Of a DNA stretch of 64,000 nt, positions 4,158 through 55,069 are shown piece by piece. The notes under the pieces were generated by a model, which was given only the letters and a program-made list of their open reading frames with translations, was not told the origin of the DNA and did not search any database. Location: UHGV virus genome UHGV-0240017; one strand, given 5' to 3'. Source of the DNA: a virus. Made by a program: the position numbers and the translations under genes. Positions within the stretch are counted from its first letter, which is position 1; each line of letters begins with the position of its first letter.

Positions 4158-6452
4158 TTACTTACCAGCAGCAGCTTTGCCTTCGCCAGCAACGTTACCT
4201 GCTACACCACCTTCGGTTTGTTTCTGACCGTTCTGTTCAACAGAAACATTGTAAGCCAGTTTTTCTTCAACCAGTTTGGTGATGCCTTTAACCCAGATCA
4301 GACCAGTGATCGGGCAGTGGCAGATGTGCGCGTTGCGCGGCTGTACGGCCAGCTCTTTAGAGGTAGAACCGTTACGCTGAATGTTGATGTTAGTAACCAT
4401 GATCGGAGACCAGAAGTGGTTACCCCAGTTCAGCACGTTGTAGGAACCATCGTCCGCAGTCGGAACTTTCAGGAACCATTGCAGACGACGAGTCCAGGAA
4501 CCGTCAGCTGCGTTGTAGATACGCCAGCGGTCATCGTTGGTGGTGATCACTTCGTATTCGTAGCGATCGCCCAGCAGACGTTGGTCACCTTGTACCAGCA
4601 GCAGCATGGATGCAGTCGGTTCGTCGGTTGCAATAACAACCTTCGGCAGAATGTCCGGATCGGCAGTGTACAGACGCAGCGCAGGAATGAAGCGAGATTC
4701 CTGGATAGCCTGAGTTACCTGATTACCGATACGCTGTACCAGGCCCTGACGAGCGTTGATCAGTGCATCTTTGGTATCCAGGGACTGTACAACTTTATCA
4801 ACGTTGTAGTCAGACTCTTTGAACCACGGAGCAACCCAGTGACGGCCCAGGCCACGAATGGCCGGTTTGTCCCACGGAGTGATCATGCTTGCAGCAGCGT
4901 TACGTACCGCTTCGGTGTAAGACAGCGTCTGAGTGATAGCCAGCTGTTCGTTACGGATGTTAACTGCGGAAATCAGGTCGTCCAGACGTTCGGTATCGTC
5001 GTATTCAACGCCAACCGGAGACTTGGTCAGAATCGGAGAACCGTATTGCAGCTTGTAGTTTTCTTGTTCCCAGATTGGGTCGAGCAGCAGACCCTGGGTA
5101 CGACGGTTTTCGTTGGTACGAGTACCATCGAAGCGCCAGCCGATCAGTTCAAGTTTCAGATTTTCCAGGACAGCTTTGCCGGTACCAGTCTTGATATCAA
5201 CTTTGTTACCGGTAGCGTCGTACAGACCTTCGATTTCCAGTTTGTGACCAGCAATGTCAACTTTACCACCGAACTGACCGGTAGTGAACAGAGACATGTT
5301 GATGGTGATCACGTAACGCAGAGTGTAGGAGTTCTGTTCCAGTGTTTTCAGAGCCGGAATAGCTTCGCCTTTCCAGTCGGTAGTTTTCGCGTTCAGAGAG
5401 AACGCAGTACGACGGAATTGCAGTACCAGCTCACGGCCATCACCTTCAGCAGGACGCTGGAAGGTTGCGAACTGCATGTCACGAACGTGCAGTTTAATGA
5501 ATTTACCTGCTTTTGCATCTTCAGCCGCTTTACGTACGGAAATCAGCAGGCTGCCCAGAGCACAACCCGGCGCGATTTCATCAGTTTCGTCGTAACCTTC
5601 GATGACGATACCCGGATGCGCAGACAGCTGGAACAGGTTCAGAGTGTCTTTAGCAAAACTCAGGTAGTTAGTCGGGTACGGAGGTACACGGCCCAGGCGA
5701 ACAGATTCGTTCGGTACCAGATCTTCGCTTACGAAGTATTCCGCGTTTTCACCGGTTTCCATTACGTAAGGAACGATGTTGATCGCTTCGTCCTGGAGAA
5801 CGGTGTGGTCAGTCAGCGCTTCGTGCAGGTTACGACGATGATCTTCAACAACATCTTTGCTCAGCAGTGCGTTCATTACACCACGAGAAACGGTGGTCAC
5901 TTTGGTACGTACGGTAATACCAACATCGTTGGTGTCAACAGTGATGGTCGGGAACAGAGTCTCAGCGAAACGAGACTGGGTTTCCAGAGCACGTACGTTC
6001 AGCGTCCAGGTCAGACCCAGGTTTTTGTCGTAGTCTTTGTTGGTGTAGTATTCCTGAGCGACAACCATACGCTCTTTGCCCCAGTCGCCGTTACCAGCTT
6101 GGGAACCAGGAATCGCAACGTCCAGGTTAAAACGGCTATGGAATTCTGGCTTAGCGTATTCTTGCGCTACTTTTTCTTGCAGGTCCATACCGTGACCAGC
6201 AGCACCCAGAATCATTGCAGAAGCAACTTCCGCAGCGTGGGACATTTTCTTACCGCCAGCAAACGCGTTTGCGTAGTGCTGTGCAGCATCGTCACGCAGG
6301 GTACCAAAAACTTTCGTGTTGCTACGTACAGACTCACCAGCAACGATGGTGTTCCACATTTCGCCAGCAGTGTTGTTACTAATGACGCTTTGTACCAGCG
6401 AGTTACCAGCTTGTACGAGTTTCTCCAGATTAGAGATTCGGGTATCTTTCAT
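4158..6452 (-). CDS. highly expressed major virion structural protein, probably major capsid protein (764 aa)
   Basis: AAGGT Shine-Dalgarno and ATG; antisense strand stop-free over the whole gene (strong codon bias); size matches phiKZ-type capsid proteins (~750 aa, from memory); strong terminator. Confidence 0.6.
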   Translation of the reverse strand: MKDTRISNLEKLVQAGNSLVQSVISNNTAGEMWNTIVAGESVRSNTKVFGTLRDDAAQHYANAFAGGKKMSHAAEVASAMILGAAGHGMDLQEKVAQEYAKPEFHSRFNLDVAIPGSQAGNGDWGKERMVVAQEYYTNKDYDKNLGLTWTLNVRALETQSRFAETLFPTITVDTNDVGITVRTKVTTVSRGVMNALLSKDVVEDHRRNLHEALTDHTVLQDEAINIVPYVMETGENAEYFVSEDLVPNESVRLGRVPPYPTNYLSFAKDTLNLFQLSAHPGIVIEGYDETDEIAPGCALGSLLISVRKAAEDAKAGKFIKLHVRDMQFATFQRPAEGDGRELVLQFRRTAFSLNAKTTDWKGEAIPALKTLEQNSYTLRYVITINMSLFTTGQFGGKVDIAGHKLEIEGLYDATGNKVDIKTGTGKAVLENLKLELIGWRFDGTRTNENRRTQGLLLDPIWEQENYKLQYGSPILTKSPVGVEYDDTERLDDLISAVNIRNEQLAITQTLSYTEAVRNAAASMITPWDKPAIRGLGRHWVAPWFKESDYNVDKVVQSLDTKDALINARQGLVQRIGNQVTQAIQESRFIPALRLYTADPDILPKVVIATDEPTASMLLLVQGDQRLLGDRYEYEVITTNDDRWRIYNAADGSWTRRLQWFLKVPTADDGSYNVLNWGNHFWSPIMVTNINIQRNGSTSKELAVQPRNAHICHCPITGLIWVKGITKLVEEKLAYNVSVEQNGQKQTEGGVAGNVAGEGKAAAGK

Positions 6453-6464
6453 TTGTTTAATACC

Positions 6465-6989
6465 TTAATGAGATAAATGACATGCGTATAATTGCGTCAG
6501 CACTTCGTTAGCGGCAAACTGCGTTGAGGTACTGAAGCAGTCATCCACGACGCGAGTCTTGGTACGCATATATTTAAAAAGTTCTGCGCAGAACATCTTT
6601 TTCGCAGCGTGGTCTTCACCCGAAGAAAAACCCGAACCGGACTTCGCTTCTGCAAATGACGCCACAATCGTATCACCACGTTGAGTAAACACCCAACGTA
6701 CGCGACAAGGAATTGTTTCCCCATATAAATCGTCAAGGGAAACCTTTTCGCCTGATTCGACCAGACGTAACACCTGATCATAATATTTACCTGGAAGCAC
6801 AGGCGGAGCCATCAGTGCTTTATAAATAGCAGAACGACTTACTTCAGGTAAGATAATAGAACTGAAACCATTCGGACAGTCATATAACCAGTTAAAGAAC
6901 CCTGCCTGGAGCAATTCTATACTTTTAACGGCAGCGCCTTTATCTATGTTAGGTTGAACTTCCCACGGTGGACTAAAACGAATTTGCAT
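6465..6989 (-). CDS. hypothetical protein (174 aa)
   Basis: ATG with GGAG upstream; ends 13 nt before next gene start. Confidence 0.6.
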   Translation of the reverse strand: MQIRFSPPWEVQPNIDKGAAVKSIELLQAGFFNWLYDCPNGFSSIILPEVSRSAIYKALMAPPVLPGKYYDQVLRLVESGEKVSLDDLYGETIPCRVRWVFTQRGDTIVASFAEAKSGSGFSSGEDHAAKKMFCAELFKYMRTKTRVVDDCFSTSTQFAANEVLTQLYACHLSH

Positions 6990-7002: not shown

Positions 7003-8565
7003 ATGAATAACAAAATGATGTTGATAACCGCCTTAGCCACATTATACGCTGAAAGTCTTCTGACCGATCCTGAAAAGGACCACGACATCATAAGAAAAGT
7101 GCTGTTAGAGGCTAAGCTTCCTGATTACGCAGAAGAAGGTGACGAACGTGCCGCCCTCGTCGAAATCAAGGATATCATCACATCCATCATAGACGGCGGT
7201 ATGCCTTACGACCACACAAACGTCATGAAACGTTTGAAACTGGCCACTACGCAAATACGTCCTCTATACGATACGATTACCAAATTCCTGGAAGATGATA
7301 TTCCAGAAGAACCAGAAGCACGCATCGAGCATCTTAATCGCCAAGTAGCACAATACTACTTTCAGTTACGTCAAGCTATTCAAGGCGTACAACTGAAACA
7401 AAAATTGGGTCGTACGTTAGGCGCACTGAACGGCACTGAAACGCGTGTTGATTTACAAACGGCGCTCAACGACCTTAAGGATACCTTATCCACGTTCAGT
7501 GAACGCTCTCATAATAAGATTCCTTCTCTGGTAGGGGAATTGATTACTGACAATAAAGCACCCTTCGTACATGTATTCGACTCTATCAGTAAGAAAGCGG
7601 CAGGGAACGGGTTGCGTACGGGCTGGAAAGCAATTAACCAAATGCTCGGTTGTAACAAAGGGATCACTGAAGAACTCTGGCTAATGCCTGCACTGCCCTT
7701 TAACTGTAAGTCATTATTCAGTTTATTGCTCTCTATTAGCATTCCTGTATTCAACACTCCAGAAAAGGTGATGGCGAATGTTAAAGGTGACTTACAACCG
7801 GTTATTCTGGATTTAAGTTTAGAAAACGAATTAGATGTTAACTTGGCTTACGCGTATCAAGCACTTTACGGACACTTTGAAGGTACAGCTCCGGTAATGG
7901 TTGCACCTGAAACAGCAACTGACGAAGAAAAAGCGCTACACAATGCACAAATGTCAGATTACCTCTGTAGTAAAATGCGGGCAAACGGTTGGGAGTATAT
8001 TTTCCAAAAACACACAAACTCCGATTTTAAAATTCACTATTTGAATGATTTGATTTTAGATTTAAAACGTCGAGGTTATCATGTAGCTGGAATACGCGGA
8101 GACTATTTCGGTACTATCAGCAAAGCAGGGCACGGTAACGGTATTGCGGGTAGCGACATTAAAGAAATTTATCGTATCGCGCGAAACATCCAAGTGGTAC
8201 GTAATCGTGGTTTCCTCTTAGCACCACACCAAATCTCACCTGAAGGCAAAAAATTAAAAGCACTCGACCCAGCAAGTTTCTGTAAGAGCTTACCTGGTCG
8301 TGGTCTTTACGACAACTGCTCTAGCTTAGACAACGAAGCTGACGGTGAGATGTATTTTAACAAACGTGTCGTCAGCGGACACAGCTATTTAGAAGTACAA
8401 CGCGGTAAACACCGTACCATTATTGACACCAAAGAAGCTTATCATTATACTGTAATACCTTTCCGTGATGTTGGCATTTTGCCTTGGGATTGTGATAAAG
8501 AAGAAACTGTAACAGCCTCGTCGATTAACGTATTTACCGGCGGCATGGGTGACGAACTCTTTTGA
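7003..8565 (+). CDS. DnaB-like (RecA-fold) helicase-family protein with degenerate Walker A
   Basis: GLRTGWKAINQMLG...ALPFNCKS resembles DnaB GVPTGFTDLD...ARPSMGKT but P-loop reads NCKS; VILDLSL Walker-B-like; lone plus-strand gene with AAGGA SD. Confidence 0.45.
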   Translation: MNNKMMLITALATLYAESLLTDPEKDHDIIRKVLLEAKLPDYAEEGDERAALVEIKDIITSIIDGGMPYDHTNVMKRLKLATTQIRPLYDTITKFLEDDIPEEPEARIEHLNRQVAQYYFQLRQAIQGVQLKQKLGRTLGALNGTETRVDLQTALNDLKDTLSTFSERSHNKIPSLVGELITDNKAPFVHVFDSISKKAAGNGLRTGWKAINQMLGCNKGITEELWLMPALPFNCKSLFSLLLSISIPVFNTPEKVMANVKGDLQPVILDLSLENELDVNLAYAYQALYGHFEGTAPVMVAPETATDEEKALHNAQMSDYLCSKMRANGWEYIFQKHTNSDFKIHYLNDLILDLKRRGYHVAGIRGDYFGTISKAGHGNGIAGSDIKEIYRIARNIQVVRNRGFLLAPHQISPEGKKLKALDPASFCKSLPGRGLYDNCSSLDNEADGEMYFNKRVVSGHSYLEVQRGKHRTIIDTKEAYHYTVIPFRDVGILPWDCDKEETVTASSINVFTGGMGDELF

Positions 8566-19246: not shown

Positions 19247-19293
19247 AAAAAAAAAGAAAAGAGAGAACCACCCCATTACAGGGTGGTTCTCTT
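19247..19293 (-). terminator. intrinsic terminator after acidic paralog A
   Basis: AAGAGAACCACCC-TGTAATG-GGGTGGTTCTCTT hairpin followed by T10 on the minus strand. Confidence 0.8.
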
Positions 19294-19309
19294 ACTAAAC
19301 AATCAGGGA

Positions 19310-20575
19310 TTATTTAGATTTTTCGTAAGCGCCGATACCGGCACTCAGGTAACCGTTCAGACCACCGGCCAGGTGTTTCTGAGTAGAAGCAATAACCTTC
19401 TCACCCAGAGACAGACCCTGGTTAACGCTGGTGATGAAACGACGGGCAGCACGTACACCTTCGGTCAGTTCCGGTTTTTCGTCGATCTTAACTTTATCGA
19501 CTTCTTTCAGGAGCTTATCGATATTATCTTCAAAGGTTTTACGCGCGCTTTCGACTTTACGATAATCCTGAACGTTTTTCTCAATCTGTTTACCCACTTC
19601 GTTGAAGAGGGCATTAATTTTGGCCAGTTCGCCAACAGACGGAGTTTTCACGCTAGTTTCAACGCTGTTTTCAGCTTCAACAAAGGTGGAGCTGAAGCCG
19701 CCTTCGTTGTCATACTCGGTTTTCACCGCCATGTTACCGAGCTTGAAGTTTTGGAGACTGTCTTGTTTGGACAGTTCGGTAAAGTCGGCTTTCAGTTTTT
19801 CAACTTTAACACCATTACCTTTGGTAACATCGGAAACCACTTCAGCAGCTTTAGCGGCCATGGCAGGCATCTTAGCGCTATAGAACGAGGAGACCTGGTT
19901 AAGGATACCTTTCAGTTTCGGAATATTATCGCCGACGAACTTGCCGTCGATAGACAGAGACTTGATAAAGCCACCAGAGATCTCATCTTTCTTCTGTTTG
20001 CCCAGCTTACGAATAACTTCATCGTATTTCTTAGCACGCGCCTGAATAGATTTACCCTGGTTGTGGAATTTCAGCCAGCGATCTTTCAGTTTGCGGCCTT
20101 GTTCTTTCAGCCAATCGAGAATACGGCCCAGGAAGGCTTTGATGTCTTCCCACAGGGATTCACGAGCAACCTGACGACGGTTACGAGAACCGTAGGATTC
20201 GTGAGCAACAGAAGAACGGTGTTCGAAGTTCCAACGAGAACGGATAGATTCCTGAGCAACGTCCAGCGCAGTCGCAGCGTCGTCCGGCATATCTTCTTCG
20301 GCGTCCATCGGTTCTTCACCGTCTTCGCCAGCACCTTCACCGTCAGCAGCAGCCTGAGCTTCATCCAGAACATCCAGCTGAGCGTCAGTTTCGTCGCCGT
20401 CTTCTGCCAGCAGTTCAGCGTCAGCGTCCAGAGCTTCGATCGGTTTGGTGTCATGCTCGATATCGGCCAGAGTGCCTTCTACGGATTCTGCTGGCAGTTC
20501 GATGCCGTCTGGAACTACAGTAGAAGTAGACTCCATAGACTCACGAGCAATTTTGTTTTTGTAGAAATTCGCCAT
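19310..20575 (-). CDS. highly expressed acidic protein, paralog A (N-terminal D/E-rich region, K-rich coiled-coil-like middle); possible head scaffold or internal virion protein
   Basis: ATG at 20575 with GAGGAAAAG SD; stop-free antisense strand (codon bias); same architecture as 20658..21929. Confidence 0.65.
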   Translation of the reverse strand: MANFYKNKIARESMESTSTVVPDGIELPAESVEGTLADIEHDTKPIEALDADAELLAEDGDETDAQLDVLDEAQAAADGEGAGEDGEEPMDAEEDMPDDAATALDVAQESIRSRWNFEHRSSVAHESYGSRNRRQVARESLWEDIKAFLGRILDWLKEQGRKLKDRWLKFHNQGKSIQARAKKYDEVIRKLGKQKKDEISGGFIKSLSIDGKFVGDNIPKLKGILNQVSSFYSAKMPAMAAKAAEVVSDVTKGNGVKVEKLKADFTELSKQDSLQNFKLGNMAVKTEYDNEGGFSSTFVEAENSVETSVKTPSVGELAKINALFNEVGKQIEKNVQDYRKVESARKTFEDNIDKLLKEVDKVKIDEKPELTEGVRAARRFITSVNQGLSLGEKVIASTQKHLAGGLNGYLSAGIGAYEKSK

Positions 20576-20657
20576 TTTAAGCTTTTCCTCTAAGGGGAAC
20601 AATACGTTCCCCTGATGATTTATTTCAAGAACTGTACGGAACTACGAATCTAAATGA

Positions 20658-48233: not shown

Positions 48234-49940
48234 TTACTCGCCGAATGCACCAAAGCCAGACACTGGCGCAGAGGTTGACATATCGCCACCACCAAAGCTA
48301 CCGAAGCTACCCAGGCTCGTAGGTGCAGACACAGGGGCAGTTGGGATATTCGACAGGATATTCGAACGGTTCTGACCACGGTTGAATTCTTGGTACCCTT
48401 CTTCCACTTTGTTCATCAGCTGCGCTGTTTCTGCAGCTAACTGGTTCGTGTACTGAAGGTCAGTCGTTGTACCACAATGCAGACGTGCTTTCATGAACGA
48501 CGCATGAGTATAATACTCAGGTAGCTCACCATCGATTTCGATTTCGATACGTGAAACCACACCAACGATACACGTTACGGTCATCTTACAACGAATACGG
48601 TTGTGTTTAGTCACTTGCAAGAATACGCCTTGTAAATCACTCAAGAAGCGACGTGCTAACACATCCGGTAATCCGTCTTCAGTTAATGCCCCAACGTTGT
48701 GTTTTGACACTTGCAGTAGAGGTGGTGTTGCAATATCCGCCATACGGTTATCGTAGAAGAAAGTCACTTCGCCGATAAGGTTACGAGTGACCACAGGCCC
48801 CAGTAACATGGCTAAATCAAATGCCACCAACGAACCCTGAGTAGAATAGTTATTACGTCCTACCCAATCATCGGTGCGTTCAATTTCACCAAAACCACGA
48901 CGAGCCGCGACAGCCAGTGAGTGCGCAATTGCAGCATCCACATCTTCGGGATTAATCACCGCGTTACGCAAGTCGCACAGTTTGAATGCTGCACGGTTCG
49001 CAACGTTCCAACCGCTAGTCATATCGGACGTAGCGTTGGACATGGCTGTTCTAAAAGCCTTCACCAACTCGTAACTGTTGAAATTACGCATCACACCAAT
49101 CTGGCTAAGTTCAGATTCTACCCCAAGAGAATGATCTCCTGCGAAGAAGCTGTCTACTGCGCTCAACTCCGTTTCAATCCCCATGGTGTTAATAAAGGAA
49201 TTGGAGATCGCCGTCACGAAAGATTCTGGTCTGGTTAATTGACTAGACATCAACTGTGGCGCACGCTGGCAATTAGCGGAGATAACGGTGTTGTTATCCA
49301 GCTCAATCTGCTCACCTGCTTTCACCACTTTACGCACCATATCAGCTGCTTTCGCGGTAGAAATAACGTCAATGGTGTGCTCTACATAGCTGTCTGCGGT
49401 TAATGTCTTAGACAGCACATAGTTGTCTATCAAGCGGAAGGAATCCGGGTTGATACGGCGTCCACCGAACGCATCGGTGATATACGTACATTGTAACCCG
49501 TATATTTCGTTGATATACAGAACCATGTCATCCGGCAGGTGATTAAACATGGATCGCTCTGCCTGGGACGTATACCCGGAAACAACATAACGTGTTTCTT
49601 GAGTCCGTGTGTCATTTAACGAGTTCGAAACAATAATCGCCACGAAGTTATACACACCAGTATCGCGAGAATTATACGCAAAATGGATTGGTTGCGATTC
49701 GTTATCACTCACGTTAATGAATGGACGTTCAATACCAGTTGGGGTATTGTCGAAACCCACAATCTGCCCCAAGGCTTCTTGATAAGCCCGAGAACCTGTT
49801 GCTTTATCACCATGTTCTGCAACCACATCCACTAACTCATCCAAAGCGTGCTGCGATTCAAAGAACCCAATGCGACGACGAATCTGCTCTGGGATTTCGT
49901 ACACTGGATACATTTGTAGTTTCAAAAGTTTCATTGCCAT
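48234..49940 (-). CDS. hypothetical protein (568 aa) with FG-rich C-terminal tail
   Basis: ATG with AAAGGAG SD; C terminus SLGSFGSFGGGDMSTSAPVSGFGAFGE. Confidence 0.7.
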   Translation of the reverse strand: MAMKLLKLQMYPVYEIPEQIRRRIGFFESQHALDELVDVVAEHGDKATGSRAYQEALGQIVGFDNTPTGIERPFINVSDNESQPIHFAYNSRDTGVYNFVAIIVSNSLNDTRTQETRYVVSGYTSQAERSMFNHLPDDMVLYINEIYGLQCTYITDAFGGRRINPDSFRLIDNYVLSKTLTADSYVEHTIDVISTAKAADMVRKVVKAGEQIELDNNTVISANCQRAPQLMSSQLTRPESFVTAISNSFINTMGIETELSAVDSFFAGDHSLGVESELSQIGVMRNFNSYELVKAFRTAMSNATSDMTSGWNVANRAAFKLCDLRNAVINPEDVDAAIAHSLAVAARRGFGEIERTDDWVGRNNYSTQGSLVAFDLAMLLGPVVTRNLIGEVTFFYDNRMADIATPPLLQVSKHNVGALTEDGLPDVLARRFLSDLQGVFLQVTKHNRIRCKMTVTCIVGVVSRIEIEIDGELPEYYTHASFMKARLHCGTTTDLQYTNQLAAETAQLMNKVEEGYQEFNRGQNRSNILSNIPTAPVSAPTSLGSFGSFGGGDMSTSAPVSGFGAFGE

Positions 49941-49970
49941 TGTAAATGCTCCTTTAGGTCAAGCCGAAAA

Positions 49971-51683
49971 TTATTGATTAAACCATGCTACTTCTTCGCA
50001 TTTCTTTCTGTTTTGAATTAACAGAAATTCTGCTAACATGTTCTGAAGTCGCGGATGAGGTGAATAGTCCAACATCACTGTCCCACACCGTAACATTCTG
50101 GCTGCTTCCGGTGTTGCCCTGAGATTGAAGTTGAACGGCGCAATATGTTCACGAACCAACAAGCTGAGAGAATCCTTCAATGTTGATTGTTCGTAAGTAT
50201 TACGATGTTTACGGTATGCTTGTGGATAATATCTATCCGTTTTTATTTTAATCTCATTATCGATAGGCTCGATGGGATACCCGCCATTTAGTGGTGCCCG
50301 GATCATTTCACAACTTAACAACTGTGCAATCTCAGGCATTCCGTAATAGATGTAAACGGCTTGGGATATACCCATCGCATTCTTAAACGCTTCTGCGTCG
50401 ATTTCCTTGTATGTACGACGATCTGCAAATCGGTGCATCACTGCCGCCACCAACCATTCGTAGAGTTCGTAGAACGGATACTGATGGTTAATGTTGATAG
50501 AATCTATCAGCACTTTCACATCTGCGGGAGCAATATCGAGATTCAAAGCACGCACCGCACGACGATAGTCATTAAAGAATTCTTGAGTACGAACGAATTC
50601 CTTCATTGGTGCTTTAGTCCGAGCTTGAACCAAGTCAATCGACGAAGTTTTCCCCTTCTCGCCATTGAACATGATTTTCTCAGGATTCGCTTTTAGCATC
50701 ACGTTTTGGCCGGAAATTTTTCCCGCGAAGCCCGTTTCGATTTCTTGTCGAATATTGAAATACATCCCCGCCACGATGTTGTTTTCAACCATCGTACCTG
50801 GCGGTAGTTCGGCACCGATTAACTTCATTGCAATTAAACGGATAACGGCGAACGCTATGATGTATTCCTCTACCATATCCGTACCGTAGCCACAGATAGA
50901 TGCCAGGACGGTAAGGTTTGCAGTATTAGGTCCTTTACTCCCCCCGTCCTGAACTTTCGAAATCACCGACACTAAAAACTCACGCAACTTTGTAATGGCT
51001 GGCAGTGTAGCAATCTCGGTATCAGACAACAACTCCATGCAGTAGGTCAGGTTATAAACACTTTTGCGCTTCGACTCAACAGAAGCACGTGTTGCAGGAA
51101 AAGCGTCCAAAATCAAGAATACGGGAATAAACGGTTTTGTCATCAAAGACAAAATCACCAATTCGTAATAATCTTGTACGATATACGTCATCTCTTTTGG
51201 ATAATTCGACGACATCTCTTCGTACGTTTCGTGGACGTTTTGAGGAATCCACACCGAACCGTGTGGATAAAGCTGGCGGAATCTATCTGCGTGGTGAAAT
51301 TTAGCAATTCTCGCGACGAGCGTGGGGACGTGTTCACGAATAACTTCTGGGGGCTCATTAGCTAACAACTCTAATTCTTCGTAAACTGAAAACAGTTCGC
51401 TTTTCTCTTCAGGCGTTAAAGTTGACCAATAACGCTCGATTTCCATGAACATGATTTTATCGTGCGTTACGATCTGTCCGAAACTATCGCGTACGTCTGG
51501 CACATTCACGTCTTTACGTCCATTTCGGAAACCATTAAACGCGACCTCTTTTTCGCCGTACTTTATCACTAAACGGTCACGATTCTTTTCAATGCGCATT
51601 TTAAAATCTCCAGGAATAACATAGTCGTCCACTAAGATAAAATCTATCTCAGATAACTTCGACTGTATTCTACACACATACAC
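49971..51683 (-). CDS. hypothetical protein (570 aa)
   Basis: Long ORF; start probably GTG; terminator hairpin 51692-51711 upstream of next gene. Confidence 0.65.
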   Translation of the reverse strand: MYVCRIQSKLSEIDFILVDDYVIPGDFKMRIEKNRDRLVIKYGEKEVAFNGFRNGRKDVNVPDVRDSFGQIVTHDKIMFMEIERYWSTLTPEEKSELFSVYEELELLANEPPEVIREHVPTLVARIAKFHHADRFRQLYPHGSVWIPQNVHETYEEMSSNYPKEMTYIVQDYYELVILSLMTKPFIPVFLILDAFPATRASVESKRKSVYNLTYCMELLSDTEIATLPAITKLREFLVSVISKVQDGGSKGPNTANLTVLASICGYGTDMVEEYIIAFAVIRLIAMKLIGAELPPGTMVENNIVAGMYFNIRQEIETGFAGKISGQNVMLKANPEKIMFNGEKGKTSSIDLVQARTKAPMKEFVRTQEFFNDYRRAVRALNLDIAPADVKVLIDSININHQYPFYELYEWLVAAVMHRFADRRTYKEIDAEAFKNAMGISQAVYIYYGMPEIAQLLSCEMIRAPLNGGYPIEPIDNEIKIKTDRYYPQAYRKHRNTYEQSTLKDSLSLLVREHIAPFNFNLRATPEAARMLRCGTVMLDYSPHPRLQNMLAEFLLIQNRKKCEEVAWFNQ

Positions 51684-51732
51684 GATAAAGAGCCCCAGGA
51701 TATCCTGGGGCTATGTTATAGTTTTACATTAT

Positions 51733-52377
51733 TTAGATAATATCGTCAAAATCGTTAGTTGGTGTTGGGGCTTTTGCACCGGATTGGTTGTTATAACCGC
51801 CGCCATTGCCGCCGTTATTGTAACCACCACGACCGTAACTACCACCACCCGCATTATTAAACTCACGCGGTTTGTAGTTGTCACGGAAATCTTCCAGGAA
51901 TACATCCGCATTTTTCAGGAACGCGCGTAGCTGACGCTCTGCCAGTTCCAGATCGGAGACCAGTTGTCCATTACGGAAAACACGATAACCTTTCGGATAA
52001 GTGAAATAGAATTTCTTCTGACGCGCACCAACCCCTGGGATCTCGCCGCTCAGTGCAAAGAACGGTGTCAGGTTTTCATCACGACCTACGTGTAAGCTAA
52101 CCGGTGCCTTCTTACCTTTTGCATCTTCCCATTTGAAAACAACTTTTTCGGGTTTCTGCATCACCGTACGTAGGGTTTCAAAGATATCAACGCAAACGGT
52201 ATAGCCTGCGGTGAAATAAAGACCTTCGCCTTTACCAAAGGAGTAGTGGAATTTCATCAGTTCCACATCACCATTGAACTCGTTCAGTTCAATGCCCAGT
52301 TTACGCGTACGGCCCTGTTGATCCGGCTCAGTCTGCGGGTAAAGCCATTTCTCTTTAAGGAAGTTTTTATTGACCAT
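51733..52377 (-). CDS. single-stranded-DNA-binding-like protein with Gly-rich linker and acidic tip NDFDDII
   Basis: C terminus GGGSYGRGGYNNGGNGGGYNNQSGAKAPTPTNDFDDII resembles the bacterial SSB tail ending DFDDDIPF; AGGATAAG SD. Confidence 0.6.
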   Translation of the reverse strand: MVNKNFLKEKWLYPQTEPDQQGRTRKLGIELNEFNGDVELMKFHYSFGKGEGLYFTAGYTVCVDIFETLRTVMQKPEKVVFKWEDAKGKKAPVSLHVGRDENLTPFFALSGEIPGVGARQKKFYFTYPKGYRVFRNGQLVSDLELAERQLRAFLKNADVFLEDFRDNYKPREFNNAGGGSYGRGGYNNGGNGGGYNNQSGAKAPTPTNDFDDII

Positions 52378-52435
52378 TTACTTATCCTATTTTTACATTT
52401 TCGGAGTGCTCAAACTAACAAAACGATCTGTAAAA

Positions 52436-53272
52436 TTAGCGAGACAATCTACGAAGGAACTCAATGACAAAGGGTTCGTTAACCAACTTCAAACAACTGT
52501 AAATACGATCCATAGTCGTATCTTGTCGCCAGTGGTATTTCTCGGCAGTATTCAACACCACCTTACGAACCTTTCTGTCAAGTGGGGAGAACATATACCC
52601 ATCGCCAAATAGCGTTAGGAACGCTTTGTTAAACGGGATCTGTTCGGGTTTACCGTAAAGCTTCGTGTACCATTCTAACCGACCTTTAATTTTCCCCGTG
52701 TGTGATTCTAACAGATTCAACAGCGGGAAATCTTTGTAGGCCAGTAGATCGGCGGGGTAATGGGTTAAAATCAATGTGTCATGCTGCCCTTTCGGAAACA
52801 CATCAAAGCTTTTGAATTGTTCAGGGTATTTTTCACCATATAACTTTAACGTATCGTGTTCTAGCGCATTAAAGTGATGCTGGTTAGGTGTCATCTTTTC
52901 CTGCCCTCCTGCAATCGTACGGAACGCTGCTTCGGGGAAGATTCTGTTCGCACTTTTATACGTACAGATATAGGGGACACATAGCACCGAAGGCGCTACC
53001 GCTTTCGCGGTAGCGTTAATAGAAGCAATATCTTCTTCAATCGATGCCAGCAACACTTCAGGTGTTAATCGTTCACGATTCGTTTCAAACGCGTAAAACG
53101 CGTTACGGAACAACGTCCGTAGATTCAGGTAAATATCCTGATACTTGTGGATAGGGACAGGACCCTTCCAATCGGCATATTCTCCTTCATGGAGAAGCCC
53201 TTCAAAAGCCAACGATGTAGCAATTGACATTTGATAAAACCCAAACGTGCGATCAACACTGATTGGGGTCAT
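52436..53272 (-). CDS. hypothetical protein (278 aa)
   Basis: ATG overlaps upstream stop (ATGA coupling). Confidence 0.7.
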   Translation of the reverse strand: MTPISVDRTFGFYQMSIATSLAFEGLLHEGEYADWKGPVPIHKYQDIYLNLRTLFRNAFYAFETNRERLTPEVLLASIEEDIASINATAKAVAPSVLCVPYICTYKSANRIFPEAAFRTIAGGQEKMTPNQHHFNALEHDTLKLYGEKYPEQFKSFDVFPKGQHDTLILTHYPADLLAYKDFPLLNLLESHTGKIKGRLEWYTKLYGKPEQIPFNKAFLTLFGDGYMFSPLDRKVRKVVLNTAEKYHWRQDTTMDRIYSCLKLVNEPFVIEFLRRLSR

Positions 53273-54417
53273 TTGATGCTCCTGATAATGTCAGTGACAA
53301 TTTGTGCATCGTATTTAAACGGCACTAATGCTTCTAACAAAATCGCTTCAACATTCTCTTCAGAGATGGTTTCCTCGACCTCTGCGTCGATAGCAAAACC
53401 GGCTGCGAGAATTTGCTCCTCTTCAGGCGTACGTATACGCGTACCTGAAATATGGAAAGAATATTGTGATTTCCAACGAGTAATGGCTTCCGCCAATGGA
53501 GAATCAGGGTAATATTCAATTTCCAATCGTCCTATCATTGAGGACGGATGAGTATCAATGTACTCAAGCGCAGAGAGACATTTCGCGTACTGCGATTCAT
53601 AGTCCTCCTCCGCAGCAATTTTAATCTGCGGGCAAGCGCGTTCATTAACCAAGAAATAATCTCTGGCTAAATCAGGAGTGAAATCGACAATAGCAAAGCC
53701 TTTGTCCTCTTCTTCACCCATTGCCAGGCGATCAGGGCTGCCTGGTACACGAATCTTACCCAATTGTTTCCTACGATGATCGTGATGGATGATAATCAAA
53801 TGCTTGACTAACGGTTCCCAAAAATCCGTATGGAAAAAGCGGGTAGACTCAACGGGAACTTGGAACTGAAAGCAGCCATGCATAAAGCAGAAATCCATCT
53901 GCTGTATACCACGCGTGGCTAATAATTCAGCCATTTCCTGTTCTGTTGCGGCAGCATCAATGGATTCGGAGCCCAGGGCTTTATACTCGTCCTGGACCCA
54001 ACCGACTGTCGCTCCTAACGCCTCGTCGTAAAACACGCCAATCTTATCCAGATACAAACAATCTGCACCCACCGCCCGATTTAACTCTTCAACGATTTTC
54101 GATTGTTTGTGATCGTGGGAGGGTGTTCCTTCCAAGACACGAATAGCGGTATTCGTCTGTTTGGCCCAGAGCAATAACCAAGTTAAAAACCCTATGGCTT
54201 CCTGAGAATCTTCTTGCCGCAAATGCCGGGAATCATCAAATAAATCACCAGCTATATAAATAGCGTCAATCGTATTATCGAACCGTTCTAAGGTTTCCTT
54301 GAGCACGTTAACAATATGCCACGTCGGTACACGACGGTGCAATAAGTGTACATCGCCCGTTGAGAAAATGCGCTTAACGCCAACTGGTTTCGGTGGCGGA
54401 TTAGTAATCCTCTTCAT
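53269..54417 (-). CDS. calcineurin-like metallophosphoesterase, Mre11/SbcD-like nuclease
   Basis: Phosphoesterase motifs in order: GDVHL, AGDLFDD, EGTPSHD, FMHGCF, IIHHDH. Confidence 0.7.
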   Translation of the reverse strand: MKRITNPPPKPVGVKRIFSTGDVHLLHRRVPTWHIVNVLKETLERFDNTIDAIYIAGDLFDDSRHLRQEDSQEAIGFLTWLLLWAKQTNTAIRVLEGTPSHDHKQSKIVEELNRAVGADCLYLDKIGVFYDEALGATVGWVQDEYKALGSESIDAAATEQEMAELLATRGIQQMDFCFMHGCFQFQVPVESTRFFHTDFWEPLVKHLIIIHHDHRRKQLGKIRVPGSPDRLAMGEEEDKGFAIVDFTPDLARDYFLVNERACPQIKIAAEEDYESQYAKCLSALEYIDTHPSSMIGRLEIEYYPDSPLAEAITRWKSQYSFHISGTRIRTPEEEQILAAGFAIDAEVEETISEENVEAILLEALVPFKYDAQIVTDIIRSIK

Positions 54418-55069
54418 CGATGATTCTTCTTCCCTTAGCAGGGGAGGACTGTTCAGGCTGTGCCGCCGTTACAGGTTTCTTTTGTCCCTGGATACGATTG
54501 CACAATTCTTCAAGTCCTTCAGGATAAGGTAATTGTCCTGACACGTTATAACGACGGAAGATCCAGTTTAACAGATCGATAACCTGTTTCGCACGAAGTG
54601 CATTTTCTTCGTACGACAACTTTTCGATGCCGTCCAACGTATAGTCGATCATCTGATACATCTGCCGTTCACCGACCTCGGAAATGATATCGGCTTGTTG
54701 GCGAATCATCTCTGTTTCTTCAGTGAGCGACGGCTGACCATCGACGTGTTGGAGCGACCGACCAGTATTAAGCAGGGGCGGGATCGTAAAGAGTAGTTTT
54801 GAATTATCCGAATCCGAAACAATCTGTAACGGAACGAAAGCACTACCTACATAATCCGTCCAGGTATCTTCGTTAAACGTACCGTCCAACATCCCCGACA
54901 ACAACGGCAAACCTTGTCGACGGAACATCGATTCAGTAAACACGCTGCACACACCCTGGCCCTGTTTAAGCATCTCTTCCATTTCAAGAAGTTTCTCAAA
55001 CTCAAACTTAGCACGGCCAGAAAGTTCTTCAATGGGTACCCCATTAAATTTTCCCGGTTCTTGATCCAT
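54401..55069 (-). CDS. hypothetical protein (222 aa)
   Basis: ORF in contiguous minus block. Confidence 0.65.
   Translation of the reverse strand: MDQEPGKFNGVPIEELSGRAKFEFEKLLEMEEMLKQGQGVCSVFTESMFRRQGLPLLSGMLDGTFNEDTWTDYVGSAFVPLQIVSDSDNSKLLFTIPPLLNTGRSLQHVDGQPSLTEETEMIRQQADIISEVGERQMYQMIDYTLDGIEKLSYEENALRAKQVIDLLNWIFRRYNVSGQLPYPEGLEELCNRIQGQKKPVTAAQPEQSSPAKGRRIIDEEDY

Follow-up and report, generated by a model that had tools for sequence, protein, structure and literature searches.

The stretch analyzed here, 64,000 nucleotides of the virus genome UHGV-0240017 (the window), carries on its minus strand a complete gene at 51733..52377, an ATG-initiated open reading frame (ORF) of 214 aa in the ORF list. 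This ORF is very likely an unannotated, divergent ortholog of ChmC (Chimallin C), also named Imp6, of nucleus-forming jumbo phages. The assignment is made because profiles from which the tails had been removed align with 98.6% probability and because the gene order is that of phiKZ. The best explanation of the locus as a whole, to which we give a probability of about 0.85, is a ChmC ortholog with a domain that binds single-stranded nucleic acids, a disordered linker, a conserved C-terminal tip, and a place in a conserved gene block. The gene, its parts and its signals are as follows:

51733..52377, minus strand: gene of the very probable ChmC/Imp6 ortholog, stop codon at 51733-51735 (PHROG 3284, E = 5e-51; tblastn; hhalign; synteny)
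51859..52377, minus strand: residues 1-173, Whirly/PUR-like domain, predicted single-stranded nucleic-acid-binding module, net charge +4
51757..51858, minus strand: residues 174-207, linker rich in Gly and Asn, disordered, whose length and sequence differ among relatives (model confidence below 50; composition)
51736..51756, minus strand: residues 208-214, NDFDDII, acidic/hydrophobic C-terminal tip, like the C-terminal tip (SSB-Ct) of bacterial single-stranded DNA-binding protein (SSB) without its Pro-Phe (sequence; conservation)
52385..52388, minus strand: Shine-Dalgarno-like AGGA, 7 nt 5' of the ATG (direct sequence reading)
51691..51712, minus strand: intrinsic-terminator-like hairpin AGCCCCAGGATATCCTGGGGCT with a T-rich tract, 20 nt past the stop codon (terminator scan)

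The hairpin has a 9-bp stem with 7 GC pairs. Residues 177-214 of the ORF read GGGSYGRGGYNNGGNGGGYNNQSGAKAPTPTNDFDDII, exactly the C terminus quoted in a preliminary description that was made from the letters of this DNA and that left the strand unstated. In the folded domain, 73 synonymous and 16 nonsynonymous codon differences separate the gene from its 83%-identical ortholog in the record NZ_CP173450.1, and the ORF is therefore under purifying selection. Relative to the same closest relative, the linker carries indels and 7 nonsynonymous differences. The suggestion that the ORF is not a real gene was rejected on the counts for the folded domain.

Fold and family of the encoded protein

AlphaFold2, supplied with an alignment of 11 homologs, modeled residues 11-170 with a predicted local distance difference test score (pLDDT) of mostly 81-95 and a predicted template modeling score of 0.71; residues 174-214 scored below 50, as is expected of a disordered tail. 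The order of secondary-structure elements in the modeled domain is beta-beta-beta-alpha, then beta-beta-beta-beta-alpha. The 11 homologs share a conserved N-terminal part of ~173 aa, followed by a stretch of variable length rich in Gly, Asn, and Gln and by conserved last residues with the pattern [FY]-D-[DES]-hydrophobic-hydrophobic. Foldseek searches against the PDB gave weak matches (best E = 5e-3), the top ones belonging to the PUR/Whirly class and led by PURA/Pur-alpha, and no OB-fold protein was among the structural matches of the domain. Based on the fold prediction and on these matches, residues 1-173 are predicted to form a single-strand-binding fold of the Whirly/PUR type, not an OB fold. 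A Pfam scan of the window protein at E <= 1 found neither SSB nor Whirly and returned only a spurious low-complexity match to RhlB; Pfam and PDB sequence searches with the single window protein yielded low-complexity noise only, and phmmer with the OB domain of E. coli SSB did not match the window ORF. The preliminary description was thus right that the N-terminal ~170 aa do not look like the bacterial OB fold. It had also proposed predicting the structure of this part, with an unrelated fold as the outcome that would speak against it; the prediction returned a fold of the single-stranded nucleic-acid-binding kind.

When 1.8 billion representative proteins were searched with a profile of 11 close homologs, 61 representatives with lengths of 210-260 aa were found. 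Fifty-nine of these, together with the close homologs and reference ChmCs, form the working set of 72 sequences to which the family counts below refer. In phmmer searches, phiKZ gp67 was matched by 52 of the 72. For hhalign, the tails were cut off so that low complexity could not contribute, and 19 SPN3US-like sequences were compared with 33 from the phiKZ/PhiPA3/Goslar clade; the resulting alignment (E = 1.1e-15) spans 119 columns, and profile A1 aligned to phiKZ gp67 alone with 95.5% probability. The structural matches of the window protein in BFVD are chimallivirus proteins, including ORF067 of Klebsiella phage Eowyn, which is also reached by tblastn from phiKZ gp67; the SPN3US clade is not reached by that search. 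The orthologs of the window protein are SPN3US gp29 (SPN3US_0029, in the same gene order), phiKZ gp67, PhiPA3 gp61, and Goslar gp176, and 201phi2-1 gp123 is also a ChmC. PHROG 3284, to which the protein belongs, is listed with function unknown, and the preliminary description had not recognized that the protein falls in an already named family, ChmC/Imp6.

Phage lineage and gene order

The window comes from an SPN3US/phiEaH2-like jumbo phage, probably a nucleus-forming one. The window protein matched by tblastn 62 records of such phages, in which its homologs are 'hypothetical proteins'; identity is 69-71% to the Erwinia phages phiEaH2, Stratton, and Asesino (69% to Asesino, for which nucleus formation has been shown experimentally) and ~65% to Salmonella phage SPN3US and its relatives. 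Megablast of the locus against phage genomes gave no match, and at the DNA level this phage is only distantly related to deposited phages. The window carries genes for a multisubunit RNA polymerase (RNAP) and a divergent family B DNA polymerase (PF20286); the genes for the DNA polymerase (61519-63831) and RNAP beta are located beyond the block that contains the ChmC ortholog. The ORF at 7003-8565 is, judging from its position, probably the counterpart of a DnaB-family ATPase named in NZ_CP173450.1. In that block, the order SbcD-like nuclease, gp66, ChmC, gp68, gp69 position is the same in phiKZ, PhiPA3, 201phi2-1, Goslar, and SPN3US, and tblastn matches of phiKZ and SPN3US proteins run colinearly along it:

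53269..54417, minus strand: SbcD-like nuclease, ortholog of phiKZ gp65/SPN3US gp27 (PHROG 100, E = 6e-60; tblastn)
52436..53272, minus strand: upstream neighbor, 278 aa, ortholog of phiKZ gp66/SPN3US gp28 (tblastn with gp66, E = 1e-26; 78% identity to gp28; PHROG 3229)
49971..51599, minus strand: downstream neighbor, ortholog of phiKZ gp68/SPN3US gp30, non-virion RNAP subunit (gp68, E = 2e-11; gp30, 53%; PHROG 3209)
48234..49940, minus strand: ortholog of SPN3US gp31 and positional ortholog of phiKZ gp69 (Imp1/PicA) (56% identity to gp31; PHROG 3141)
58169-60016, minus strand: outside this block, 615-aa ORF flanked by the genes for DNA polymerase and RNAP beta, the position that chimallin (ChmA, gp54) has in phiKZ (PHROG 8316, unknown function)

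The role of phiKZ gp68 as a non-virion RNAP subunit is taken from published work (bioRxiv 10.1101/2024.03.27.586873; antisense study). The gp68-like gene likely starts at the ATG at 51599 and not at the listed GTG at 51683, because the alignment with SPN3US gp30 and the sequence itself point to that start. The listed GTG of this ORF (49971-51683) falls inside the terminator hairpin of the ChmC gene; with the ATG start, an intergenic region of ~130 nt holds the terminator. The ORF at 58169-60016 is probably a very divergent ChmA.

The closest complete genome, NZ_CP173450.1, is recorded as a circular 'plasmid p98232-contig_4' of 221,873 bp from a human urinary E. coli isolate (strain 98232). It is an SPN3US-like jumbo phage genome, 83% identical to window positions 49900-54420, and almost all of its genes are annotated 'hypothetical protein'. 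It represents a phage that the isolate carried or harbored as a pseudolysogen or, alternatively, a contaminant that was assembled as a plasmid.

Two further observations concern other parts of the window. The RNAP beta-subunit gene contains a group I intron at 56415-56732 on the minus strand (Rfam RF00028); the match spans the full model and scores 56.9 bits, above the gathering score of 50 (E = 1.5e-13). SPN3US has no such insertion, since SPN3US gp23 aligns in two blocks on either side of it, aa 6-456 at 58069-56717 and aa 445-528 at 56414-56151. No long ORF resembling a homing endonuclease was noticed inside the intron, where no dedicated look for one was made. In addition, three pairs of ORFs of 430-760 aa are open on both strands: 4158-6452 (minus) with 4218-6476 (plus), 19283-20593 (plus) with 19310-20602 (minus), and 58076-60025 (plus) with 58169-60016 (minus). 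In the last pair at least, it is the minus-strand ORF that has family support.

The C-terminal tail across the family

The preliminary description had likened the tail to that of bacterial SSB, a Gly-rich linker that ends in an acidic tip. This likeness is borne out by the predicted disorder and the Gly-rich linker and, in part, by the tip, and it extends across the family. The window tail has a Gly fraction of 0.29 and an Asn fraction of 0.20, and its last 8 residues carry a net charge of -3; tails in the family are 30-72 aa long. E. coli SSB ends in PPMDFDDDIPF (checked against PDB 1eqq), and the window tip NDFDDII has the D-F-D-D and the hydrophobic end and lacks the penultimate Pro and the terminal Phe. 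The 11 homologs all have D211, and their [FY]-D pair is conserved; FDDII is unchanged in the 83%-identical relative, although the residues before the tip differ.

A tip was counted as acidic-plus-hydrophobic if it contained two or more D/E, lacked basic residues, and was hydrophobic at one or more of the last three positions. Such tips are present in 66 of the 72 family members, compared with a mean of 1.8 and a maximum of 8 in 2000 shuffles of each member's own tail; 18 of 155 background ORFs have one as well. The canonical SSB-Ct pattern was defined as a C-terminal [DE][DE]x0-1[ILVMF]P[FWYM]. Of the 72 members, 16 carry it, where 0.001 are expected, and none of the 155 background ORFs does; PPMDFDDSIPF, DDFDDDIPF, and NFDDIPF are examples. 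Near-canonical tips are found in cultured phages, namely Erwinia phage pEa_SNUABM_37 (FDSDIPF), Salmonella phage SA002 (FDESIPF), Xanthomonas phage LucasX (DDDIPM), and Ralstonia phage RP31 (SDDIPW). Other tips deviate: FDEDMPSF in phiKZ, FDDEIPNF in PhiPA3, VAFDGLAF in Goslar, SFDW in 201phi2-1, SYDEFL in SPN3US, and DFDDII in the window. The tips of the window clade (DFDDII, YDEFL, FDSFI) are without Pro-Phe. The ChmC ortholog of Vibrio phage vB_VmeM-Yong XC31 (ORF 623-1306) has a short, Gly-poor tail that ends in SGSSTGW, with no acidic tip; this natural exception is a possible control for tail function.

Two kinds of unusual family members were also seen. The metagenomic protein P0067, of 420 aa, has two tandem Whirly-type modules in one chain, seen as two matched stretches, and ends in PPMDFDDSIPF, identical to the E. 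coli SSB end in 10 of 11 residues. P0014, P0022, and P0023 (Salmonella phage SPFM9 and metagenomic entries) carry the segments of the same protein with the order of the blocks reversed, which suggests gene models joined wrongly on the wrong strand and not real variants.

The term 'SSB' is absent from the ChmC paper, from recent reviews, and from the core-genome, transposon, and antisense papers on these phages. Within the literature searched, the likeness of ChmC tails to the SSB tip is thus undrawn, and it may be noted elsewhere. The DNA of the tail has no similarity to a chromosomal ssb in 5,426 E. coli genomes, in a test limited by the low-complexity filter of BLAST. Capture of the tail from a host ssb gene was rejected at the DNA level, the sole match in those genomes being the orthologous phage gene.

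Possible roles of the tail

ChmC homologs have been studied experimentally in several phages. PhiPA3 ChmC is a homotetramer by size-exclusion chromatography with multi-angle light scattering (Enustun et al., Nucleic Acids Research [NAR] 2024, PMC11077065) and binds single-stranded RNA (ssRNA) with a Kd of 58 nM and single-stranded DNA (ssDNA) cooperatively, with a Kd of 184 nM and a Hill coefficient of ~2. According to the same study, ChmC is early and abundant (in 201phi2-1 infection, only one non-structural protein exceeds it in abundance), can be cross-linked to phage mRNAs in vivo, and is recovered by proximity labeling with either ChmA or the nuclear recombinase UvsX as the bait. In PhiPA3 it is located at the nuclear shell and in the cytoplasm, and in Goslar in puncta in and on the nucleus. 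The proteins that co-purify with it are ribosomal proteins, RNAP subunits, ChmB, and phage RNAP subunits; host SSB partners are unreported. Knockdown leads to small nuclei, to mRNAs kept in the nucleus, and to a global decrease in phage proteins. PhiPA3 ChmC forms condensates that need the C-terminal disordered region: when this region is removed, condensates are lost and RNA binding and the tetramer are kept, and the tail-less protein loses shell localization and does not rescue the knockdown (all PMC11077065). Independently, phiKZ gp67 was named Imp6 for its direct binding, at ~2:1, to the import factor Imp1 (gp69), in work that also reports import of a host topoisomerase into the phiKZ nucleus (bioRxiv 10.1101/2024.03.27.586873). 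phiKZ orf67 is free of transposon insertions (transposon study), and gp67 scores in an antisense knockdown screen. SPN3US gp29 is essential and non-virion, with its function given as unknown, in an amber-mutant study (PMC5105663).

Carried over to the window, these results would make its protein an abundant, early, and essential homotetramer that binds ssRNA and ssDNA, joins phage mRNAs and the nuclear shell, and binds Imp1, with a tail needed for shell localization, condensates, and rescue of a knockdown. The flexible linker would present the acidic/hydrophobic tip, in four copies per tetramer, as the tail of bacterial SSB does. The tip might dock on the basic nucleic-acid-binding face of neighboring tetramers, giving self-association and an auto-inhibition that nucleic acid would release, or its partner might be another phage protein, either one at the shell or one that belongs to the replication/transcription machinery. 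Docking would concentrate ChmC and its bound cargo where single-stranded RNA or DNA emerges. Whether the tail is such a docking module is, in our estimate, an even bet: docking is favored over a purely compositional role because the conservation of the tip is positional and includes the terminal hydrophobic residues.

Several points weigh against this picture. When the window protein is compared with phiKZ gp67 by pairwise BLAST, no significant match is obtained, and the homology rests on profiles, fold, and synteny; this divergence of the branch is also why the clade has gone unannotated. The hhalign alignment covers window residues 52-172 only. Of six basic residues mutated in PhiPA3 ChmC, two are basic in the window protein, and its binding surface may therefore differ, judging from the sequence, from that of PhiPA3 ChmC. 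The function proposed for the SPN3US-like clade is transferred from experiments on homologs. Among the neighbors, pairwise BLAST is not significant for the ORF in the Imp1 position against PhiPA3 gp63 or for the ORF in the ChmA position against phiKZ gp54 (chimallin), so that the Imp1 label reflects gene order and the ChmA label position only. As for the tail, the ChmC authors described its end as an S/D/E-rich 'electronegative cluster' and ascribed its effects to condensates and not to specific docking (PMC11077065). Finally, the Imp1 pull-down construct is given as gp67-FLAG in the text and as FLAG-Imp6 in the legend (bioRxiv 10.1101/2024.03.27.586873); if the tag was C-terminal, that interaction needs no free C-terminus.

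The combination of a tetramer, a disordered linker, and an acidic tip is the blueprint of E. coli SSB, and Whirly proteins are ssDNA-binding genome-maintenance proteins of plant organelles. A protein of this build could primarily be the replication and recombination SSB of the phage, a Whirly tetramer in place of an OB-fold SSB, which would coat ssDNA at forks and recombination intermediates within the phage nucleus and recruit DNA-metabolism enzymes, of the phage or imported from the host, through its tip, with RNA binding secondary. This explanation overlaps with the one preferred here, and as a primary role we consider it unlikely. On the one hand, the canonical tip in 16 of 72 members, the cooperative binding of ssDNA at 184 nM, the labeling from UvsX inside the nucleus, the early and abundant expression, and the small nuclei upon knockdown all fit an SSB. 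A survey of 224 jumbo phages also found the OB-fold SSB to be a hallmark of group 2 and not of the PhiKZ-like group 1, and speculated that other jumbo-phage groups recruited their own single-strand binders (PMC7824862). The products named by the Prokaryotic Genome Annotation Pipeline in the 222-kb genome NZ_CP173450.1 (a DnaB-family ATPase, a family B polymerase, RNase H, ThyA, and others) include no SSB, in a test blind to novel SSB folds. Likewise, phmmer with E. coli SSB against 786 ORFs from that genome and the window found none that resembles it (best E = 0.45), in a search that is insensitive to novel or very divergent folds. The sole ORF among the 786 with a G/N/Q-rich linker and an acidic tip is the ChmC ortholog. 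On the other hand, ChmC favors ssRNA ~3-fold and cross-links to phage mRNAs, upon its knockdown mRNAs fail to leave the nucleus and protein levels fall globally, PhiPA3 ChmC is found at the shell and in the cytoplasm and not throughout the DNA mass, and the protein binds Imp1. The proposal in the preliminary description that this is either the phage SSB or a decoy for host SSB partners therefore stands in part: homologs do bind ssDNA and no canonical SSB was found in the lineage, whereas the published role is centered on RNA preference, mRNA binding and export, and Imp1, and is not that of a fork SSB. It is a tentative thought, and in our estimate an unlikely one, that ChmC is the missing SSB-equivalent of nucleus-forming phages, a Whirly tetramer that gained the whole SSB tail module by convergence, with the tail as a hub that recruits enzymes of replication, recombination, or RNA processing to ssDNA and nascent RNA in the phage nucleus. 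The hub might, equally tentatively, recruit phage RNase H, helicase, polymerase, or UvsX and, where the tip is canonical, imported host SSB partners, and the RNA-export and import phenotypes could then be partly downstream of it.

The decoy part fares worse, above all for the window clade. In this explanation, the tail would imitate the host SSB tip and hijack its interactome (ExoI, RecQ, RecJ, PriA, Topo III, RNase HI, Ung), either to neutralize these proteins or to bring them to the nucleus. The ends of P0067 (PPMDFDDSIPF against PPMDFDDDIPF in E. coli) and of P0033 and P0044 (both DFDDDIPF) are strikingly close to such a target, those of pEa_SNUABM_37 and SA002 are near the host tip, and a host topoisomerase does enter the phiKZ nucleus. 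However, the window clade lacks Pro-Phe, Yong XC31 has no acidic tip, and the tips vary widely among phages whose hosts, as far as is known, share an SSB tip of the DDDIPF type; mimicry of one fixed target would not predict such variation. Together with tail DNA unlike any chromosomal ssb in the E. coli genomes searched and with the lack of reported host SSB partners among co-purifying proteins, this makes a decoy very improbable. The variation among tips suggests instead a phage partner that co-evolves with the tip, or an electrostatic role of a looser kind. Alternatively, the tail could be only a generic low-complexity region, an N/G/Q-rich driver of phase separation whose acidic end keeps the protein soluble and damps nonspecific binding, with no specific docking site; its likeness to SSB would then be superficial convergence of composition. 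This is how the ChmC authors read their 'electronegative cluster', and it agrees with the loss of condensates, but not of RNA binding or the tetramer, upon removal of the C-terminal region and with the free variation in linker length and sequence. Composition does not explain, however, the positional pattern at the end (an aromatic-Asp pair and one to three residues that are acidic or polar, ending in I-P-F or in two hydrophobic residues), its presence in 66 of 72 members where 1.8 are expected, or an FDDII that stays invariant between two relatives whose preceding residues differ; moreover, a solubilizing acidic patch needs no terminal hydrophobic residues. A generic tail is thus somewhat doubtful, and a ChmC ortholog with a conserved tip remains the explanation we prefer.

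Assignment to ChmC/Imp6 gives a name and a grounded function to a gene that is called 'hypothetical protein' in all the matching phage records listed, and it brings the same gain in annotation to the 222-kb E. coli 'plasmid' that is a phage genome; the essentiality of SPN3US gp29 follows from its being a ChmC ortholog. Beyond what is known of the ChmC family, the analysis adds the family-wide SSB-tip pattern and a testable hypothesis. The ChmC tail is known to be indispensable, an effect so far ascribed to condensate formation, and the SSB-like tip offers a testable handle on how ChmC/Imp6 is tethered and what it recruits. If the hypothesis is true, the conserved docking peptide at the C-terminus would imply a specific pocket on a partner, and ChmC would be linked to the apparent lack of a canonical SSB in PhiKZ-like phages.

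Among known systems, ChmC/Imp6 itself is the closest: the window protein shares with it the homologous folded domain, the Whirly-like fold, the gene neighborhood, and an N/G-rich tail with an acidic end, and its SPN3US ortholog is an essential non-virion protein, as are the ChmCs of phiKZ and Goslar. It differs from phiKZ-type ChmC in its low identity (~18% over the aligned domain for the window clade), in its length (214 versus 246-262 aa, with no extension at the N-terminus and no insertion separating the two repeats), and in a tip, F-D-D-I-I, without the Pro and terminal aromatic present in many other members. The likeness to other Whirly/PUR binders (StWhy2, p24/PBF-2, T. brucei MRP1/MRP2, and Pur-alpha) is at the level of fold only, with identities of 5-9%, and we know of no SSB-like Gly-rich linker among these single-stranded nucleic-acid binders. 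With residues 113-178 of E. coli SSB, the window tail shares the Gly content of the linker (0.29 versus 0.26), an approach to the tip rich in A, P, S, and T (AKAPTPTN versus SAPAAPSNEPP), and an aromatic-Asp acidic tip with a hydrophobic C-terminus, and ChmC homologs are tetrameric too. The linker of the window protein is Asn-rich (20% Asn), whereas that of SSB is Gln/Pro-rich (17% Gln), and the domain is predicted to be Whirly/PUR and not OB, in a family whose studied homologs prefer RNA. T7 gp2.5 and T4 gp32 are OB-fold fork SSBs with an acidic C-terminal tail, hydrophobic or aromatic at its end, which both regulates their own binding and brings in replication proteins of the phage. They would be the closest functional analogy, drawn here by description, for a tip evolving together with a phage partner; the core of the window protein is predicted not to be an OB fold, and the acidic tail is common to all three. 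If the docking hypothesis is true, ChmC would provide, on an unrelated fold, a second example of the linker-plus-acidic-tip solution found in bacterial SSB, T7 gp2.5, and T4 gp32.

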